This document shows, one piece after another, positions 94 to 64,000 of a stretch of 64,000 bases of DNA. Below the pieces are notes generated by a model that made no database searches, was not told where the DNA came from, and was given only the letters and a program-made list of their open reading frames with translations. A program made the position numbers and the translations under genes. Source of the DNA: Candidatus Giovannonibacteria bacterium RIFOXYD1_FULL_48_21 (GTDB lineage: Bacteria > Patescibacteriota > Minisyncoccia > JACPKW01 > UBA11713); NCBI GenBank assembly GCA_001778985.1, contig MFIU01000002.1:139930-203929 (forward strand), in the 5' to 3' direction. Every line of letters begins with the position of its first letter. The first letter of the stretch is position 1.

Positions 94-807
94 ATGATAA
101 GTTTTAAAGGAAAAAAGATTTTAATCTTAGCCCCTCATCCCGATGATGAGATTTTAGGGTGCGGGGGCTTAATCTCGCGCGCCAAAAGAGAAGGCGCGAA
201 AATATATGTCCTCTATTTTACGGCCGGGACCACTAAAGATTTTTCAGAAAAGGGTTTTTCCACGAAAGAAGAAAGACTCGAAGAAATAAAAAAGGTGGCG
301 CGATTTCTGAAATTCGACGGCTGGAAGATAATTTTTCCCGGCGAAGATTATCATCTTTCTTTGGATAAACTGCCGCAAAAAACCATCATCAACGAAATCG
401 AACGCGGTTCCAAAATTTCTCTTGAAACGATAAAGCCTTCTCTCCTCTTAATCCCTCATCACCAAGACTATAACCAAGACCATCGGGCGGTCGGCCTGGC
501 CTCGGTAGCCGCCACCAGGCCGGCGCTTCGCACCCATAAAAGCCTGCAGCCGTTCGTCTTGAGCTACGAGTACTCTTCAAGCCATTGGAATGTTTCTCAA
601 AACGGTTCTGACAAAAACTTCTTCGTGGAATTGACCAAAAACGATATCGCCAAAAAGCTGCGAGCTCTTTCGCTGTACAAATCGCAAATGAAACCCCATC
701 CCCATCCGCACTCCCTAAAATCGGTAAAACTTTTTGCTGAGTTAAGGGGTACTCAAATCGGAACGAATCTGGCGGAAGCGTTTTTGGCCACCCGAGTTAC
801 GGTATGA
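94..807 (+). CDS. PIG-L/LmbE family N-acetylglucosaminyl deacetylase
   Basis: N-terminal ILILAPHPDDEILGCGG motif typical of LmbE/PIG-L zinc deacetylases; 4-bp overlap (ATGA) with next gene. Confidence 0.8.
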   Translation: MISFKGKKILILAPHPDDEILGCGGLISRAKREGAKIYVLYFTAGTTKDFSEKGFSTKEERLEEIKKVARFLKFDGWKIIFPGEDYHLSLDKLPQKTIINEIERGSKISLETIKPSLLLIPHHQDYNQDHRAVGLASVAATRPALRTHKSLQPFVLSYEYSSSHWNVSQNGSDKNFFVELTKNDIAKKLRALSLYKSQMKPHPHPHSLKSVKLFAELRGTQIGTNLAEAFLATRVTV

Positions 808-7996: not shown

Positions 7997-8195
7997 AATT
8001 CTTTTAAGGCCCGGGAGAGGTTGACTCCAAACTACGTCGTTGTGTGAGTACCAGTCTCCCGGGCCTTATTCATTATAACCCAAATACAAAATCCCGGTTT
8101 TACCGGGATTTTGTAAGACGTAGTTAGATTCTCCAACCGAAGCCGGAGAAACTCACTTTCGCATTATAGCAAAACTCTATTCCAAAAGTCAAGTT
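7997..8195 (-). promoter_or_regulatory. hpf promoter plus structured 5' leader (three hairpins)
   Basis: Minus-strand TTGACT (8192-8187), 17 nt, TATAAT (8169-8164). The leader holds a CUCCGGC-UUCG-GUUGGAG tetraloop hairpin (8137-8154) and a terminator-like hairpin AAAAUCCCGG-UAAAA-CCGGGAUUUU followed by GUAUUU (8087-8111). A 13-bp palindromic hairpin AAGGCCCGGGAGA...UCUCCCGGGCCUU (8005-8066) ends 8 nt before the AUG. Confidence 0.45.
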
Positions 8196-12868: not shown

Positions 12869-13981
12869 CTACAGGAACTTCATGACCGCATCAGCGATTC
12901 TGACAGCGGCGCCTGGCTTCTCGAGGTCTTTGAAAGGCAAAGAGCGGTGTTCCAGCGTGTAGTGTCGGAGGGCAATCTCGTCGTTTCTGATTTTGCTAAG
13001 GAGCCTCCCGACTCTACTGGGATTTTCCGCTCCCCAATTTGGATCCTCTATTAAAAGCGGGGGGACGCCGTTGATAAAACCGGAGGCAATTCTTGCTTCT
13101 TCATCATCATAGTCGTACATCCTTTTTGCAAATTCTCCGCTTGGAAAAAGAGGTGTTATGGTTGGAATGCCCCGCAGCACCGCTTTGTACCCATCCGTGC
13201 CTCCAAAAGGTACAACCACCGCATTCGAAGAGAGATAGAGCTCTATCAAGTCAACCTCACGGGCATTGGGCACAAATTTAATTGGGCAAGAGACAAGTTT
13301 TTCCCAAAGCTCCTCTTTCTTGAGATGCTTAGGGTGTGGCCTCCATGCCACAATCGTGTCTTTGTCGATTGGAATGGTTCTCGCGATTTCCCCAACATGC
13401 GCGACTGCCATTTTATTCGGCTCTCCTTGAAATCCCCAACTCACCAAGAAGTCAGATTGAGAAACTCCAAGCCTTTCCCGAATCCTCGATCGGATCAAAG
13501 GAATTTCTTCGATTGGCGGAATCGCGCCGAAACTTGGCTTGCCGACTTCGATTGTACCAATATGCGGCCGGACATTTGAGACAATTTGGGAGGCAAGCTC
13601 ATCAACTGTGAGCATTACATTAGGATCAGCGCCTCTTTCGTTTGCCTGCTCGCCGGTTCCCCAAAGATCCTCATACCATAAGACGGGGACTTCATTTGCC
13701 TTTCCAAAATTTGTCCAGGCAACCTGCGATTCGGCGTAGCCTGAACTTGTTCCGCACAGAATGACCGAAGGTTTGGGCCCCTTGTACTCCCCTGGTGAGA
13801 GAGTCGCATACGAGATTCCTTTTTTCTCGAGAACATCAGTTCGAGCTTTTCCTTTAGGGTCGGCAAACCAGTTCACGGGTATGTGCCTATCCTCCAGTTC
13901 TTTCGCGGCCAGCGCAAGATCTAACGCGCTTCCGTTGTCTCCAACAATAACAAAAACCTCTCCACTGCCTTTTTGTGCCAT
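12869..13981 (-). CDS. hypothetical GT-B-fold (MurG/PseG-like) glycosyltransferase-like protein, compositionally distinct
   Basis: 370 aa; C-terminal VVPFGGTDGYKAVLRGIPTI resembles a GT-B nucleotide-sugar binding loop; noticeably higher GC than neighbours. Confidence 0.4.
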   Translation of the reverse strand: MAQKGSGEVFVIVGDNGSALDLALAAKELEDRHIPVNWFADPKGKARTDVLEKKGISYATLSPGEYKGPKPSVILCGTSSGYAESQVAWTNFGKANEVPVLWYEDLWGTGEQANERGADPNVMLTVDELASQIVSNVRPHIGTIEVGKPSFGAIPPIEEIPLIRSRIRERLGVSQSDFLVSWGFQGEPNKMAVAHVGEIARTIPIDKDTIVAWRPHPKHLKKEELWEKLVSCPIKFVPNAREVDLIELYLSSNAVVVPFGGTDGYKAVLRGIPTITPLFPSGEFAKRMYDYDDEEARIASGFINGVPPLLIEDPNWGAENPSRVGRLLSKIRNDEIALRHYTLEHRSLPFKDLEKPGAAVRIADAVMKFL

Positions 13982-14059
13982 CGCGCACCTCCTTAAAGAA
14001 TTTTCTACATTCTAAAAAACTTCTGCCAAGAAGTCAAGACCGCCTTAAATTGATATTTC

Positions 14060-14800
14060 TGTGCCACTTGGACATACGATTTCCAAGTTTCAAGTTCTAC
14101 TCTAAAAGCAGCAACTCTAGTTCTTTAGCTAATTTCTTCCGCTCTATGATGTCAGGTAAAGAATCCTCGGCAAAAGTTTTATATTCGCCTCTATTCCGGA
14201 ACTGTTTTAAGATGACGCCATTTTCACAAAATTTCTTTGGAGAGCTGCTAATATATTCAGACCAACTTGACCTAAATGTTTCACCCCTAAGTCGGTGGGC
14301 GAGATTATTTAAATTCACGTAGGCACTAGTGTATAAAAGGTACTCGTTAGAATTTATGTGTGAGGATTTGAATCTTCCTTGAAAAAGAACTCCGTTTCTT
14401 TTATACCTGATATTAAAATATTTAGTGTAGCCGATACTCAATCTCCTCATAAATTCACTTATGCCATCGTCAATCACCGGTTCAAGGATAAGATGGTAAT
14501 GATTAGGATTCAAACAGTAACATACGACATTAACCAATTTAGAAGTTTTGGACTTGCGATGTCCAAATTTCATTTTAAAAAAATTATTTTCATAAAGGCT
14601 TCCAATCGGCTCTATGGTATTAAACTCTTCCATACTTTGGAGAAAGCGATCAAAATCTTTCCGTTGAGTAAAAATCGTCCTCTTATCTACTCCACGATTA
14701 TAGACGTGAAAAAATTCGCCGGCCGCGAATGGTATTTTCCTCATGGTCTAATTTTAATACTTGGACATGCGATTTCCAAGTTTTCCGTTTCTACGAGAGA
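14060..14800 (-). mobile_element. IS200/IS605-like insertion (HuH Y1 transposase flanked by direct subterminal hairpin repeats)
   Basis: Near-identical about 35-bp segments ACTTGGACAT(A/G)CGATTTCCAAGTTT...GTTTCTAC at 14066-14100 and 14759-14794, each containing the CTTGGA-N9-TCCAAG hairpin, bracket the transposase gene. Confidence 0.6.
14097..14744 (-). CDS. IS200-like / REP-associated tyrosine (HuH, Y1) transposase
   Basis: HuH motif NHYHLILEP and downstream catalytic Tyr region YTSAYVNLN; AT-rich. Confidence 0.8.
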   Translation of the reverse strand: MRKIPFAAGEFFHVYNRGVDKRTIFTQRKDFDRFLQSMEEFNTIEPIGSLYENNFFKMKFGHRKSKTSKLVNVVCYCLNPNHYHLILEPVIDDGISEFMRRLSIGYTKYFNIRYKRNGVLFQGRFKSSHINSNEYLLYTSAYVNLNNLAHRLRGETFRSSWSEYISSSPKKFCENGVILKQFRNRGEYKTFAEDSLPDIIERKKLAKELELLLLE

Positions 14801-15440
14801 AGAATAAGCAAGACTCCGGCGAGAGCGAGGCCGGCGCCCAAAAGTTTTCTGGAAATATTTTTTTCACGGAAGAAGAGCCAGCCCCGTAAGCAAAAATTCG
14901 ATTCGAATAGAGCACGGTCAGCTTGTCGAAGTTAACTGAAACCGAAGCCAAAAGCGCCACGAGCAAGCCCAAAAGATTTCCTTTTCTGAAATCTGGAACA
15001 TTATTCCGAGCCGGCACAACTTGACCAAGAGTCCATAACCCCAAAACCGACAAGACCACCCCCGCCATGCCGTAGACCGGAGGAAGTTCTCCCAAAAAAA
15101 TCCAGCCCGTAAAAAGCAAAAACACCGGCGCGGCAAGACTCATTGAATACACTGAGGAAAATTCTCCCAACTCGTAAGCCCGAAGTCCCAGAGGAAGCAT
15201 TATGATATTTAGGGTACTGGTTATCAAAACTGCCGGCCAAAAACCAGGTTTTAAATCAGGGAATCCTAAAAATAAAAAAGAAGCGGCGAGGAGAATCAGC
15301 GAAGCCGTGGCCGTCACCACCAGACCGATTCCAATCTTTGAAAACCGGGCCACTCTCACCGCCTCATTGGACAAGGCGTTAAGAACTGACTGCGCCAAGG
15401 CAGACCCTAACGCGAAAAAAAACCACAGAAACATACTCAA
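14754..15440 (-). CDS. EamA/DMT-family transporter whose 3' end has been replaced by an IS insertion (likely truncated)
   Basis: Multi-TM EamA-like repeat; the last ~15 codons (RRNGKLGNRMSKY) are read from the IS right-end hairpin sequence. Confidence 0.6.
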   Translation of the reverse strand: MSMFLWFFFALGSALAQSVLNALSNEAVRVARFSKIGIGLVVTATASLILLAASFLFLGFPDLKPGFWPAVLITSTLNIIMLPLGLRAYELGEFSSVYSMSLAAPVFLLFTGWIFLGELPPVYGMAGVVLSVLGLWTLGQVVPARNNVPDFRKGNLLGLLVALLASVSVNFDKLTVLYSNRIFAYGAGSSSVKKIFPENFWAPASLSPESCLFFSRRNGKLGNRMSKY

Positions 15441-16190: not shown

Positions 16191-16233
16191 TTTACAACAA
16201 AAAAGAGGCGGTCTCTATGAGAGACTGCCTCTT
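16191..16233 (-). terminator. rho-independent terminator after the 16247..16732 gene
   Basis: Minus-strand AAGAGGCAGUCUC-UCAUA-GAGACCGCCUCUU stem-loop followed by UUUUUUGUUGUAAA. Confidence 0.6.
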
Positions 16234-16246
16234 TCCCTCGGTGGAA

Positions 16247-16732
16247 CTAACGTCTACTCACTATTACTGCAACGCCGAGAATAATGAGCAGGATGCCCAG
16301 AAAATGATAGAAATCCATCCTTACCGTATCAAAAAATCTGGGCATCAATGAACTGAAAAGAGCGGAGAGAAGGAATACGAACACAATCGCACTACTCTGA
16401 ATCGCAATCGGCAATCCGGGGTTTGGCGCTGCTGGAATAGCGCTGAACAGAAACAGATTTGTTAATGCGCCAAGTAAGATGCCAACCATAAACGGCGGCA
16501 AGAATTTTGACACCGAGAAGAAGGCTATGTCCCTTGCTGCGGTCGGTATCACTCCAGAAAGCATAAGGATGCTTGCGGCTCCGACTGACGTGCCGGCAAA
16601 ATACCCAACCATCGTTATCTCCGCGCTAATAGCGAAATTCTTCTTTAAGAAATCTATAGATAGCCAGGCGGGGATAACAAAAATAAGAGAAATTATGGAC
16701 TTCGCAACCCATCCAAGCTCTAAAAACTTCAT
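16247..16732 (-). CDS. small 4-TM DMT-superfamily (single EamA repeat, SMR/ArnE-like) membrane protein
   Basis: 161 aa, four hydrophobic helices, C-terminal GILLIILGVAVIV motif. Confidence 0.45.
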   Translation of the reverse strand: MKFLELGWVAKSIISLIFVIPAWLSIDFLKKNFAISAEITMVGYFAGTSVGAASILMLSGVIPTAARDIAFFSVSKFLPPFMVGILLGALTNLFLFSAIPAAPNPGLPIAIQSSAIVFVFLLSALFSSLMPRFFDTVRMDFYHFLGILLIILGVAVIVSRR

Positions 16733-24698: not shown

Positions 24699-25728
24699 AC
24701 GCTTTATTGAGAATTTTCATGATTTCCAATCCTCTTTCAAATGAAAGCGGAGAATCTTTAAGTTTAATCTCGCCTGAAAGAAGTTTTTGGTAATGCAGGG
24801 TTTCGCAGTAAAAATCATCAGGACGCTTTTTGGAAACGATTTTTTCGATAAGCTCGCCTCCTTCAACTTGATAGCGAAGAAGGTCGCCTTCGGGGCTCGC
24901 GTTTCCGACCCACTCTATAAATCCTTTCTCGCCCTGGGCCCTGGCCCATTTTTTGACCGGAAAAGTTATCACATCTTGAACCACGCGCCCTACTTTTCCG
25001 GATTCAGTCTTCAAGAGAAAAGTCGTCAAGTAATCATATTCAGCCTCGCGTTCTTTTTTAAAGGCAAGACTGCTTTTCACGTCTGAAATTTTATCCCAGC
25101 CGGCGGCTTCGGCCAGATGACGCCAAAGATGCAAAGCATGAGAATGTTCTCCACCCGCGCCGCCTCCCCTTTTCCAATAACCAAGGTATGTTTCCCAAGG
25201 ACCGGCTAACCACGGATGCGCTCCGAAAATTCCGCGCCAGTGTTCCCGAAACTCCACGTCCAAGGTCAAAATATTTCCGACAACTTTATCGCGAAGCATT
25301 TTCGCGAATTCTTCCAAGGCCTGACCCACGGCATTGTCGTAACCAACCACCACGATGGTTTCGGGATGTTTTCGAAGTTCGGCCCTAAATTCGTCAACTC
25401 CCTTTAAATCCGGCGCGCACAAAGGCTTTTCCAGATGCAAAAGTTTTGGATTTTCTTTGAGCGCCTCCAAAGCAAGTTTCATCCTCACATCCGGAGGAGT
25501 GCCGAGCATGATAATGTCAAATCCCCCTTTCGGCTCTTTGTCCGGGGTAAAAAGTTTGATGGAATCGTCCCAAGCGCCGTAGCGTTTGGGATAAATGTCG
25601 TTTTTCATCCGCTCGAGCGCCTTGGGGTCGGCGTCCACCACGCTGACCTCCCAGCCCATCCGACGCGAAGCTTGGGCTAAATGATTCCCGATTGAACCCG
25701 CTCCGATGATTTTTACTTTCATATTCAT
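24688..25728 (-). CDS. Gfo/Idh/MocA-family NAD(P)-dependent oxidoreductase (PtmF-like), copy 1
   Basis: N-terminal GAGSIGNHLA Rossmann fold and the hallmark EKP motif (LLHLEKPL). Confidence 0.7.
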   Translation of the reverse strand: MNMKVKIIGAGSIGNHLAQASRRMGWEVSVVDADPKALERMKNDIYPKRYGAWDDSIKLFTPDKEPKGGFDIIMLGTPPDVRMKLALEALKENPKLLHLEKPLCAPDLKGVDEFRAELRKHPETIVVVGYDNAVGQALEEFAKMLRDKVVGNILTLDVEFREHWRGIFGAHPWLAGPWETYLGYWKRGGGAGGEHSHALHLWRHLAEAAGWDKISDVKSSLAFKKEREAEYDYLTTFLLKTESGKVGRVVQDVITFPVKKWARAQGEKGFIEWVGNASPEGDLLRYQVEGGELIEKIVSKKRPDDFYCETLHYQKLLSGEIKLKDSPLSFERGLEIMKILNKAYGF

Positions 25729-26904: not shown

Positions 26905-26912
26905 CTTAGAAT

Positions 26913-26950
26913 AAAGAGGAATGTCGCTCGACATTCCTCTTTATATTTTC
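26913..26950. terminator. bidirectional stem-loop terminator between convergent genes
   Basis: Perfect inverted repeat AAAGAGGAATGTCG-CT-CGACATTCCTCTTT followed by ATATTTT. Confidence 0.6.
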
Positions 26951-28289: not shown

Positions 28290-29350
28290 TATAGAGAGGA
28301 TGGATAATAGGCGCGGTTCAGCACGCGCATGACCTCGAGACCGCGTTCAAATGAAAGCGGAGAATCTTTAAGCTTGATTTCGCCTGAAAGAAGTTTTTGA
28401 TAATGCAGGGCCTGCCGCCAGAAATCATCCGGCCGTTTTTTGGCAAAAACCTTTTCTACCAAATCTTCACCCTCGACCTGATAACGGACTAAGTCTCCTT
28501 CTGGAACGCCACGCAGATGCCATTCGACAAATCCTTTCTCACCCTGCAACCGCGCCCAGGTTTTGAAAGGATGGGTGAATAAATCCTGAATCACTCGACC
28601 CACTTTCCCTTCCTCGGTCTTAAACAAAAAGGCGATAAGCTCGTCGTATTCAGTTTCCTTCTCCTTTTTCATAGAGAAATCAGTCTTAACTTCTTTGAGC
28701 GCTCCCCAGCCAGCGACTTCGGCCAAGTACTGCCAAAGATGCAAGCCGTGAGAGTTTTCTCCTCCGGCCCCTCCCCCGCGGCGCCAGTAACCGAGGTAGG
28801 TTTCCGCTGGGCCGGAAAGCCAAGGGTGAGCCGCGAAAATAGACCGCCAATCTTCCCTGATTTCAACGTCCAGAGTCAGGATTTCTCCAAAAATTTTCTT
28901 TTTAAGGAGTTCGACTGCGGCTTCAACGCTTTCTGAAACCGCATAAATATATCCGACCGTCACCAAAATTTCCGGATATTTAGCCAAAGATTTTTCGAAT
29001 TCTTTCACTTCGCCGAGGTCAGGAGTCGAAAGAGGTTTTTCCAGATGAAGCAGTTTCGGTTTTTCTTCCAGTGCTTCCAAAGCGAGTTTCATCCTCACAT
29101 CCGGAGGAGTGCCTATCATGATAATGTCAAATCCCCCTTTCGGCTCTTTGCCAGGGGTAAAAAGTTTTATGGAATCGTCCCAAGCGCCATAGCGCTTGGG
29201 ATAGATGTCGTTTTTCATCCGCTCGAGCGCTTTGGGGTCGTTGTCAACCACACTGACTTCCCAGCCAACTCTCCGGCAAGATTGCGCCAGATGATTTCCA
29301 ACTGAACCTGCTCCAAGAATTTTAACTTTCACCCCGTTAGAAGTTTTCAT
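28289..29350 (-). CDS. Gfo/Idh/MocA-family oxidoreductase, copy 2 (near-identical paralog of 24688..25728)
   Basis: About 90% nt identity to copy 1 over several hundred bp at both ends. Start moved from the ORF-track 29488 to the ATG at 29350 (MKTSNGVKVKILGAGS), which aligns with the copy-1 start. Confidence 0.7.
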   Translation of the reverse strand: MKTSNGVKVKILGAGSVGNHLAQSCRRVGWEVSVVDNDPKALERMKNDIYPKRYGAWDDSIKLFTPGKEPKGGFDIIMIGTPPDVRMKLALEALEEKPKLLHLEKPLSTPDLGEVKEFEKSLAKYPEILVTVGYIYAVSESVEAAVELLKKKIFGEILTLDVEIREDWRSIFAAHPWLSGPAETYLGYWRRGGGAGGENSHGLHLWQYLAEVAGWGALKEVKTDFSMKKEKETEYDELIAFLFKTEEGKVGRVIQDLFTHPFKTWARLQGEKGFVEWHLRGVPEGDLVRYQVEGEDLVEKVFAKKRPDDFWRQALHYQKLLSGEIKLKDSPLSFERGLEVMRVLNRAYYPSSL

Positions 29351-63378: not shown

Positions 63379-64000
63379 ATGTTTCGATGGTTAAGAAAAC
63401 CTCAAATAAAAGCCATTCTTCCTAAAATTGAACTTGGCGCTCTTTGGCCTGATGAGATTTCAGTAAAAATTCTCGAGCCGGATGCCAAAGACGGCAATGT
63501 CTCCTTGGGAGAGCTGGTAATAATCTCCCAGTTAGTAAAACTCCGAAATCCCTTAAAAATTTTCGAAATCGGCACTTTTGACGGACGGACGACTCTGAAT
63601 ATGGCTTTGAATTCAAGTCCAAATACAGAAATATTCACTTTGGATCTTCCTCCTAGGAAGTCCGACTTCCAATTGGAAGTCGGACTTCCTCTTGCCGGAG
63701 GAGATAAAAAATTCATCGGCAAAGTTGAAACCGGCTTTCGCTTCAAGGGAAAAGAGGCCTCAAAAAAAATAAAACAGCTTCTCGGCGACTCCGCAAAATT
63801 TGATTTCTCGCCTTTCTATAATTCAATGGACTTTGTCTTTGTGGACGGCTCGCACGCTTACGAATACGTCTTAAAAGATTCCGAAAGCGCTTTGAAGATG
63901 ATAAAACCCGGGGGCGTAATTTTATTTCACGACTATAATACCTCCTGGCCCGGCGTGACCAAGGCCTTGAATGAACTTTTCACCTCCAACCCCCGCTTCA
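63379..64000 (+). CDS. class I SAM-dependent O-methyltransferase (Methyltransf_24/TylF-like), 3' end cut by window edge
   Basis: Hand translation of the plus-strand frame gives IFEIGTFDGRTTL and DFVFVDGSHAYEYV motifs. Not in the ORF track because no stop occurs before the window end. Confidence 0.55.
   Translation, partial: MFRWLRKPQIKAILPKIELGALWPDEISVKILEPDAKDGNVSLGELVIISQLVKLRNPLKIFEIGTFDGRTTLNMALNSSPNTEIFTLDLPPRKSDFQLEVGLPLAGGDKKFIGKVETGFRFKGKEASKKIKQLLGDSAKFDFSPFYNSMDFVFVDGSHAYEYVLKDSESALKMIKPGGVILFHDYNTSWPGVTKALNELFTSNPRF

Follow-up and report, generated by a model that had tools for sequence, protein, structure and literature searches.

A candidate REPtron-like unit in Candidatus Giovannonibacteria: a RAYT-like HUH tyrosine nuclease gene bounded by its own 23-nt palindrome

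Here, we report on a 64,000-nt stretch of contig MFIU01000002.1 (assembly GCA_001778985.1, Candidatus Giovannonibacteria bacterium RIFOXYD1_FULL_48_21; positions 139,930 to 203,929 of the forward strand), hereafter the window, and specifically on a single-gene unit in it that encodes a HUH protein of the Y1 type. We consider this locus a REPtron-like unit, i.e., a gene for a tyrosine nuclease/transposase similar to the tyrosine transposases that go with repetitive extragenic palindromes (REPs), known as RAYTs, bounded by its cognate 23-nt palindrome, and we give this reading a probability of roughly 0.68. As judged from sequence comparison, the unit is probably able to move or overwrite its hairpins and would be mobile as a whole only on occasion. 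Coordinates in the window and the corresponding sites of the wider family are collected in Table 1.

The open reading frame (ORF) is bracketed by two copies of the 23-nt hairpin that are 22/23 identical. The 24-nt sequence CTTGGACATRCGATTTCCAAGTTT has exactly two sites in the 64 kb, 14067-14090 and 14760-14783, both on the same strand, with no further site there when up to 3 mismatches are allowed, and the expectation from 100 shuffles is 0; the bracketing by near-identical hairpin segments that had been noticed in an earlier, sequence-only reading of this DNA is thus borne out. Similarity between the two repeats reaches further, to ...GTT(T)CTAC, with one indel. The upstream (U) and downstream (D) hairpins each form a 7-bp stem or, alternatively, a stem of 10 bp that has one mismatch and closes a loop of 3 nt; in the register of the family they read ACTTGGAcAT-ACG-ATtTCCAAGT, and both carry the identical stem mismatch. 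Their fold energy as DNA is -4.7 to -7.1 kcal/mol (z of -2.1 to -3.9 versus shuffles). Both copies follow a minus-strand stop codon, as generic terminators would; no T-run comes after the stems, however, and two sites against none expected in shuffles, together with four palindrome positions and within-gene barcode identity across 66 related genes (see below), leave almost no credence for chance or terminator hairpins that surround the gene and are unrelated to its protein.

The extent of the unit follows from a comparison with contig L092, which we located via the protein homologs of the neighboring 370-aa GT-B-fold protein and their contigs. The gene order in L092 is NeuB, Epimerase_2, CTP_transf_3, an intact EamA gene (292 aa), 80 nt, and the GT-B homolog; the contig is otherwise colinear with the window locus and has no Y1 gene. 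Its junction reads ...CTCGTAA-A-AAATATTAATTTGAGGCGGTCTTGACTTC, versus ...CTCGTAG[insert]AAATATCAATTTAAGGCGGTCTTGACTTC on the minus strand of the window; at length, ...GGAGTCTTGCTGATTCTTTTCTCGTAA-A-AAATATTAATTTGAGGCGGTCTTGACTTCTTGGCAGG in L092 corresponds to ...GGAGTCTTGCTTATTCTTCTCTCGTAG-(insert start)-AAACGGAAA-hairpin-ATTAAAATTAGACC-ATG... in the 5' part and ...TAG-AACTTGAA-hairpin-GGCACAG-(insert end)-AAATATCAATTTAAGGCGGTCTTGACTTCTTGGCAGA in the 3' part of the window sequence. The empty site is clean, with no obvious target duplication. MAFFT placed the L092 intergenic sequence AAAATATTAATTTG at the left junction; we preferred the right junction because it gives 17/19 rather than 8/15 matches, which leaves an uncertainty of +-3 nt on the unit ends. 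In gene orientation the unit consists of 9 nt, the upstream palindrome, the promoter, the Y1 ORF, 8 nt, the downstream palindrome, and 7 nt, i.e., the hairpins are subterminal and on the same strand, 9 and 7 nt inside 732 bp, and both this arrangement and a discrete unit facing an empty site are as in the IS200 group of insertion sequences (IS). The hexamer GTAGAA is found 8-9 nt 5' of both window hairpins, the single empty site giving an insertion after ...CTCGTAG; we considered it as a RAYT-type guide, but the family alignment shows no conserved flank motif there. In other assemblies of the locus, the contigs end on the EamA side, 273 nt (L001) and 95 nt (L002) upstream of the Y1 start, which may reflect strain heterogeneity or a presence/absence polymorphism.

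The 215-aa protein has the HuH motif NPNHYHLIL at residues 79-87 (HYH at 82-84) and the tyrosine motif SAYVNLN with Y142, and it weakly matches Pfam Y1_Tnp over residues 66-144 with 27.8 bits (cutoff 23), confirming the Y1 transposase gene that the sequence-only reading had recognized from HYHLIL. A search of 5.8 billion proteins gave 3725 homologs, the best of the non-self ones being 63-65% identical, ~212-215 aa long, and from Giovannonibacteria and other Parcubacteria/candidate phyla radiation (CPR) bacteria; the conserved motifs are NHYH, LFQG, YVNLN, and an SSW tail, with H82, H84, and Y142 conserved. A sequence search of the PDB reached only E 0.24, for ISDra2 TnpA around the HuH motif, so that a fold search was needed. 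With the AlphaFold2 (AF2) model (pLDDT 84.8) as the query, the best PDB match is 4ER8_A, TnpA_REP with REP (E 6e-5, TM (target) 0.65, 178 columns), which is the only fold match with E <= 1e-3; the TnpA proteins of IS608 and ISDra2 follow at E >= 5e-3. TnpA of IS200 class 1.1 is defined by DH[VI]H, Y[IV]ENQ, and a length of ~150 aa (Quentin, Siguier, Chandler and Fichant; PMC6006769 Table 1), in contrast to the 215 aa, NHYH, and YVNLNN found here with IS608/ISDra2 ranking below TnpA_REP. With regard to the class-2 tyrosine motif, YVNLN is followed mostly by N/G/W, not P, while the divergent paralog L003:72-728 has YAHLNP. Taken at the level of sequence and predicted fold, the Y1 protein fits best with the class-2 RAYT-like TnpA_Y1 proteins, its closest motif agreement being with a subclass 2.1 variant. 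The locus had been read earlier as an IS200/IS605-like insertion: a discrete, hairpin-bounded, Y1-only unit absent from L092 is indeed present, whereas its transposase is not of the IS200/IS605 type, the motifs (NHYH, FQ, YVNLN, SSW tail) and the 4ER8 fold being RAYT-like instead.

We then turn to a family set of 66 Y1-family genes from GTDB genomes of CPR bacteria. Across these genes the palindrome ACTTGG-N4-loop3-N4-CCAAGT recurs at four fixed sites, i.e., U, D, and two sites within the ORF (I1 and I2), with a family-type hairpin at I1 in 41 genes and at I2 in 37. On the AF2 model, I1 falls in residues 61-70, the block of lowest pLDDT, and I2 in residues 150-158 past the tyrosine helix, both being surface loops. 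The 19-nt core of the window I1 matches U at 16/19 positions, and its location equals that of I1 in the 41 family members; the I2 relic fits the family I2 consensus CACCAACTTGG..CCAAGTTG in position and flanks, with stem complementarity lost. The I1 hairpin, a third copy, had gone unnoticed in the sequence-only reading. The window copy is a slightly decayed member of the family, with an intact ORF, a stem mismatch common to U and D, a degenerate I1, and a relic of I2. A flanking palindrome family of its own, as in a REPtron, is found both for the window gene and in the family, and in-frame cognate palindromes inside the enzyme ORF, as in subclass 2.4, are found at the family level.

The palindrome centers behave as barcodes of the individual genes. 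When the 19-nt cores were compared with a threshold of >= 17/19 identical positions, identity within a gene was found for U-D in 47/66 (71%), for U-I1 in 31/59 (53%), and for U-I2 in 31/53 (58%), versus 2-4% between genes (U-D 3.9%). All four copies are 23/23 identical in L042, and mosaic genes carry two or three barcodes (L019, L051, L052, L069, L078). The pair L022 and L052, ~87% identical in DNA, differs in barcode at each of the four sites, and both the feet and the remaining ORF sequence align; the homology of these two genes (85% identical) runs exactly from the U foot to the D foot, and their flanks are unrelated. Between copies, the loop is often found reverse-complemented; 29 genes have U and D in direct orientation and 17 have them inverted. 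These sequence comparisons indicate that the barcode is replaceable wholesale, with the feet and the remaining gene conserved.

The upstream palindrome is also part of the promoter of the gene. A promoter scan of the window gave TTGGAA-17-TAAAAT-TAGACC-ATG (14779->14751), and a -10-like hexamer comes after U in 45/59 genes, compared with 11/55 for D, 10/41 for I1, and 3/37 for I2 as controls. In 28 genes 17 nt separate TTGGnn of the palindrome from the -10, and in 27 there are exactly 6 nt between the end of the -10 and the ATG. This spacing indicates that the -35 of the Y1 promoter and its spacer are provided by the palindrome. The Y1 mRNA is probably leaderless, as the sequence suggests, and binding to the promoter hairpin, or its extrusion, would probably autoregulate the Y1 gene.

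Palindromes of the family also occur alone, scattered both through intergenic DNA and, in frame, through unrelated genes. In 583 kb of Y1-centered loci there are 15 solo hairpins, several with the barcode of the neighboring Y1 gene. When metagenome contigs were scanned without bias for CACTTGG-N11-CCAAGTG, 94 palindromic matches were obtained: 30 are in or beside a Y1 homolog and 64 are solo, 37 of the latter lying >900 nt from a contig end; 16/47 well-embedded solo palindromes are inside long ORFs. The window itself has a solo inverted doublet with a different center in a methyltransferase ORF that starts at 63379 and runs off the window end (-22 kcal/mol, z -6.95). In a related organism, the 82%-identical ortholog L213 carries a solo ACTTGGACATACGATGTCCAAGT at this codon position, which is 22/23 identical to the hairpin of the present element and is free of its stem mismatch, and the ortholog L214 (84% identical, from the L092 organism) has no hairpin at that position. 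On the metagenome contig L109, a 1112-aa ORF around 7034 has two different family palindromes adjacent and in frame (...HLAAKPPSGLDIQCPSG...), which shows that coding regions can accumulate several palindrome insertions.

With respect to copy number, the seven pairs of paralogs that share an assembly have identities of 34-70%, and syntenic orthologs are 80-92% identical between species (L021/L029, L043/L081, L055/L063/L065) and conserved at least as well as the neighboring genes; the pair L022/L052, with its unrelated flanks, is an exception to this RAYT-like pattern of vertical inheritance. The window has a single Y1 copy, with no near-identical further copy in the 64 kb, and the nearest non-self homolog is 65% identical. 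Dispersed cognate palindromes, low copy number, divergent paralogs, and syntenic inheritance are all RAYT characteristics; solo hairpins, divergent paralogs, and synteny are RAYT/REP properties and not those of IS200 copies, which are ~99% identical (PMC6006769 Table 1).

These data bear on the alternative that the locus is a classical IS of the IS200 group, i.e., an autonomous element of ~0.7 kb excised and inserted as a single-stranded DNA circle by TnpA acting on the end hairpins, with the internal and solo hairpins incidental. Such an element would share with the IS200 group (IS200, IS608 TnpA) its size (732 bp here), one Y1 gene with a Pfam Y1_Tnp match, subterminal same-strand hairpins, an empty site that is clean and free of obvious target duplication, and the lack of classical inverted terminal repeats; it would also fit the hairpin-to-hairpin homology of L022/L052 across different contexts and the contigs of other assemblies that break beside the unit. 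We nevertheless consider it unlikely: the Y1 class is another one, as motifs and fold are RAYT-like rather than DH[VI]H/Y[IV]ENQ; near-identical copies are missing, given a nearest non-self homolog of 65% identity among 5.8 billion proteins and paralogs 34-70% identical; orthologs are syntenic; the two end hairpins are identical and there are internal ones as well; 17/46 genes have U and D inverted; and solo hairpins are common, amounting to two thirds of all.

A second alternative is a Y1 gene that is fully domesticated and immobile, its palindromes serving as double-stranded DNA operators of a dimeric regulator, the solo palindromes being the regulon and the indel a gene loss. The regulator would possibly be the Y1 protein itself, via its C-terminal helix. 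The contribution of the U palindrome to the promoter, the vertical inheritance with purifying selection, and the base composition agree with this: family Y1 ORFs are ~10 GC points under their flanks in 63/63 loci (34.2% versus 44.4%) and follow host GC (r = 0.78), suggesting long residence. On the other hand, palindromes occur mid-ORF and in frame in unrelated genes, orthologous methyltransferases have different hairpins or none at one codon position, barcodes are swapped in genes otherwise 87% identical, and related genes stand in unrelated flanks. All these features mark mobile DNA and not a regulon, and we regard the operator explanation as quite improbable.

For the REPtron-like unit, we propose that the enzyme would bind its hairpins when they are single-stranded DNA, in the manner of TnpA_REP of E. 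coli and TnpA of IS608, and would cut and rejoin at the hairpin feet. Cutting and rejoining may move or overwrite hairpins in a REP-like manner, and the whole hairpin-to-hairpin gene might be moved rarely, in an IS200-like manner; the enzymatic route by which barcodes are homogenized or swapped we infer likewise. A doubtful possibility is that the enzyme performs site-specific hairpin-tip exchange, overwriting the center of any resident ACTTGG...CCAAGT site, the two in its own gene included, with the center of another copy. If so, a change of DNA specificity would rewrite two surface loops of the enzyme (the LG-xxx-SK peptides) and the promoter at once, and self-encoded, co-varying protein and DNA barcodes would keep paralogous systems orthogonal in a tiny genome.

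Several points weigh against the REPtron-like reading. The NCBIfam model NF047646 (REP_Tyr_transpos) scores 27.4 bits versus a cutoff of 80, and the tyrosine motif YVNLNN is without the class-2 proline. The family consensus cCACTTGG...CCAAGTGg has GTGG at the 3' end, paired with the 5' CCAC, and the canonical REP 5' GT[AG]G hairpin foot is not present in the family alignment. In the 64 kb there is no solo copy of this element's barcode; wide occurrence of the hairpin apart from transposases, which the sequence-only reading had taken as a sign of a REP/RAYT system rather than IS ends, is largely seen at the family level (the 64/94 above), and a 22/23 match to this element's hairpin stands solo in L213. 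The indel may be an insertion in the window or a loss in L092. Metal-dependent cleavage and joining of single-stranded DNA at the hairpin are predicted from sequence, with H82, H84, and Y142 conserved. Please note also that identical repeats make metagenome assemblies collapse or break, so that recent multi-copy bursts could be under-seen.

Among known systems, the RAYT/TnpA_REP REPtrons (E. coli, 4ER8) are similar in the HUH/Y1 fold, as the best structural match, in having their own type of flanking palindrome with a separate variant for each paralog and dispersed palindromes, and in being low in copy number, with paralogs that diverge and orthologs at syntenic positions. The CPR family differs from them by the absence of the 5' GT[AG]G foot, by short perfect 10-bp stems with 3-nt loops, by a modest dispersal rather than hundreds of REPINs, by an upstream palindrome that is a promoter, by a gene that is also a hairpin-bounded indel, and by the NCBIfam RAYT score (27 versus 80 bits). 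In subclass 2.4 of Cyanobacteria/Bacteroidetes, tnpA_REP itself contains in-frame REPs (Quentin et al. 2018, PMC6006769), which partly sets a precedent for an enzyme gene with palindromes of its own, the frame being likewise kept and the palindromes in surface loops; the CPR family, however, has two fixed and conserved sites (before HuH and after the tyrosine helix) that differ from the 2.4 sites, a constant 23 nt with the same barcode as the flanking copies, and the motifs NHYH/FQ/YVNLN versus NH[IFV]H/WQ/YIxNNP. Subclass 2.1/TIRYT gives the best published motif agreement (NH[YF]H, FQ, Y[IV]HLNP-like, SS tail, longer protein), an agreement in motifs only; no REP-like hairpins are reported for it and its C-terminus is helix-turn-helix-like (PMC6006769), whereas hairpins are the rule in the CPR family and the C-terminus is one long helix in the AF2 model.

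The CPR palindromes also resemble other in-frame palindromic DNA within protein genes, but they are much shorter (23 nt, ~8 aa) than the Rickettsia palindromic elements and are tied to an identifiable Y1 enzyme family. The Rickettsia elements are short palindromic DNA in frame in coding genes, tolerated in loops; REP insertions in coding regions were reportedly described by Di Nocera et al. in 2013 (cited in PMC6006769). CPR/Patescibacteria genomes are tiny and usually called poor in mobile DNA. Our literature search found no paper on this family in CPR bacteria or tying RAYTs to CPR bacteria, and this large Y1 family is apparently undescribed. A family of thousands (3725 homologs) in CPR bacteria here behaves as a RAYT/REP system with three unusual traits: a palindrome that makes up part of its promoter, in-frame palindromes at two fixed sites of its own ORF, and centers homogenized within and swapped between genes, with peptides of ~8 aa written by palindromes into other proteins. 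It may provide a compact, testable model for the co-evolution of HUH enzymes and hairpins, for paralog orthogonality, and for the reshaping of coding sequence by palindromic DNA. Caution is needed in annotation, as such genes can be mislabeled as IS200 transposases.

Table 1 Features of the Y1 locus in the window and the four palindrome sites of the family
Feature	Position	Strand	Remarks
Inserted unit	14059..14790, 732 bp, boundaries +-3 nt	-	From comparison with the empty site in L092
Y1 HUH gene, 215 aa	14097..14744	-	NHYH 14493-14501; SAYVNLN 14307-14327; long C-terminal helix
Upstream (U) palindrome	14759..14781		ACTTGGAAATCGCATGTCCAAGT in gene orientation; -35 and spacer of Y1 promoter
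-10 hexamer TAAAAT	14751..14756	-	Promoter scan; 6 nt before ATG
Internal palindrome I1	14547..14567		TTTGGACATCGCAAGTCCAAA in gene orientation; degenerate; encodes FGHRKSK, aa 60-66
Internal palindrome I2, relic	14270..14292		ACTTAGGGGTGAAACATTTAGGT; decayed; aa 151-159, RLRGETFRS; loop after catalytic-Tyr helix
Downstream (D) palindrome	14066..14088		ACTTGGAAATCGTATGTCCAAGT in gene orientation; 8 nt past stop codon
EamA/DMT pseudogene	14791..15440	-	N-terminal 184 aa in one frame; last 30 codons and natural stop in another
GT-B-fold gene, 370 aa, native	12869..13981	-	Own promoter TTGACT-17-TAGAAT, 14037->14009; outside the element
Solo inverted doublet	63655..63690, 36 nt		GGAAGTCSGACTTCC; different center; in frame in Methyltransf_24 gene, encodes RKSDFQLEVGLP
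Family U site	35-45 nt before ATG		Inside promoter
Family I1 site	ORF nt ~172-190		Encodes x-L-G-x3-S-K-L; before HuH motif
Family I2 site	ORF nt ~440-480		Encodes H-x-L-G-x3-S-K; after Tyr helix
Family D site	Mostly 0-15 nt past stop		Family-type hairpin in 55/66 genes

Next to the unit lies a pseudogene of an EamA transporter of the DMT type. Relative to the intact 292-aa ortholog in L092, ~241 nt are missing inside the gene near 14884-14890, equivalent to L092 residues 181-262, and because of this the C-terminal part is shifted in frame: the conserved C-terminal helix GWLFFREKNISRKLLGAGLALAGVLLILLS*, which directly precedes the insert, is in a frame different from that of the N-terminal 184 residues, and the natural stop is the TAG at 14791-14793, at the outer edge of the insert. 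The internal deletion frameshifts the gene, making it a pseudogene, though the insertion is not the cause. The same lesion is present in L001, an independent assembly of the same strain group. The deletion is ~100 nt from the insertion and does not abut it. In the sequence-only reading, the right end of the element had been thought to supply the last ~15 codons and the stop of the transporter, which the insertion would have truncated; neither holds, as the unit sits after the natural stop, found at the insert edge in the other frame, and EamA is broken by an independent deletion. It is the frameshift from that deletion that produces, as an artefact, the long ORF extending into the repeat. An intact DMT homolog without the insertion, which that reading had proposed to look for, is the one in L092. 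Frameshifted neighbor ORFs of this kind can be mistaken for insertion-truncated genes, which calls for care in annotation.

Between the window and the strain variant L001, the Y1 ORF has 9 synonymous differences and 1 non-synonymous one, and the comparison indicates an intact ORF under purifying selection. All 18 differences in the 4169 nt compared are within 14130-14900, i.e., in the Y1 gene and the EamA remnant, with zero across 3.2 kb of the GT-B and Wzy genes; nine of them, all transitions, are within 14469-14622 around the I1 hairpin. Such clustering could reflect a recombination tract or local hypermutation.

On the other side of the unit, the 370-aa protein is correctly labeled GT-B-like, as had been suggested earlier, because its AF2 model (pLDDT 89.7) matches MurG, UDP-GlcNAc 2-epimerase, and MshA as the top folds (E 1e-11 to 1e-9). 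It has only 14 homologs: the one in L092 is 55% identical and adjoins EamA, and a 66%-identical one in a Giovannonibacteria genome has a Wzy_C-TPR gene (741 aa) two genes downstream of it, a similar Wzy_C-TPR gene directly following the GT-B gene in the window. When JGI metagenome contigs were searched with the 370-aa sequence, no match was obtained. The promoter of the gene lies in DNA conserved with L092, and its context is a NeuB/cytidylyltransferase/O-antigen-ligase cluster. The gene had been described as visibly GC-richer and as possibly brought in by the element. Profiling puts its 49.9% GC within one standard deviation (sd) of the window mean (47.2%, sd 2.8%, 1.1-kb windows; 19% of windows are at or above that value), whereas the 36.1% of the Y1 ORF is the lowest among 634 windows of 650 nt, so that the contrast seen at first stems from the AT-rich Y1 gene. 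We rejected a GC-rich passenger on the grounds of an ordinary GC content and a conserved neighborhood next to EamA in the empty-site contig; the GT-B gene belongs natively to the glycan cluster of NeuB/Wzy. We also rejected a recent foreign origin as the explanation of the low Y1 GC, as 63/63 genes are ~10 points low and track host GC and several are syntenic orthologs; the compositional shift is constant among these genes, whose inheritance is partly vertical. The ORF at 16247-16732 (minus strand), located between the gene for the cytidylyltransferase and that for NeuB, encodes a multi-pass membrane protein of 161 aa for which neither Pfam nor NCBIfam gave a match; L092 carries a UDP-GlcNAc 2-epimerase gene in its place.

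Other hairpins are seen elsewhere in the window. One similar pair is at 25568-25591 and 29178-29201 (TCCCAAGCGCC[G/A]TAGCG[T/C]TTGGGA) and another at 24730-24751 and 28341-28360 (...TTCAAATGAAAGCGG), the members of each being 3.6 kb apart, which suggests a tandem duplication of a ~3.6-kb segment; their feet, CCAAG...CTTGG, are the reverse of the Y1-family arrangement. Long perfect palindromes of other sequence types, with 15-16-bp stems, are found at 8085-8115, 16202-16234, and 26911-26944 and are probably terminators, the one at 16202-16234 coming after the end of the cytidylyltransferase operon.

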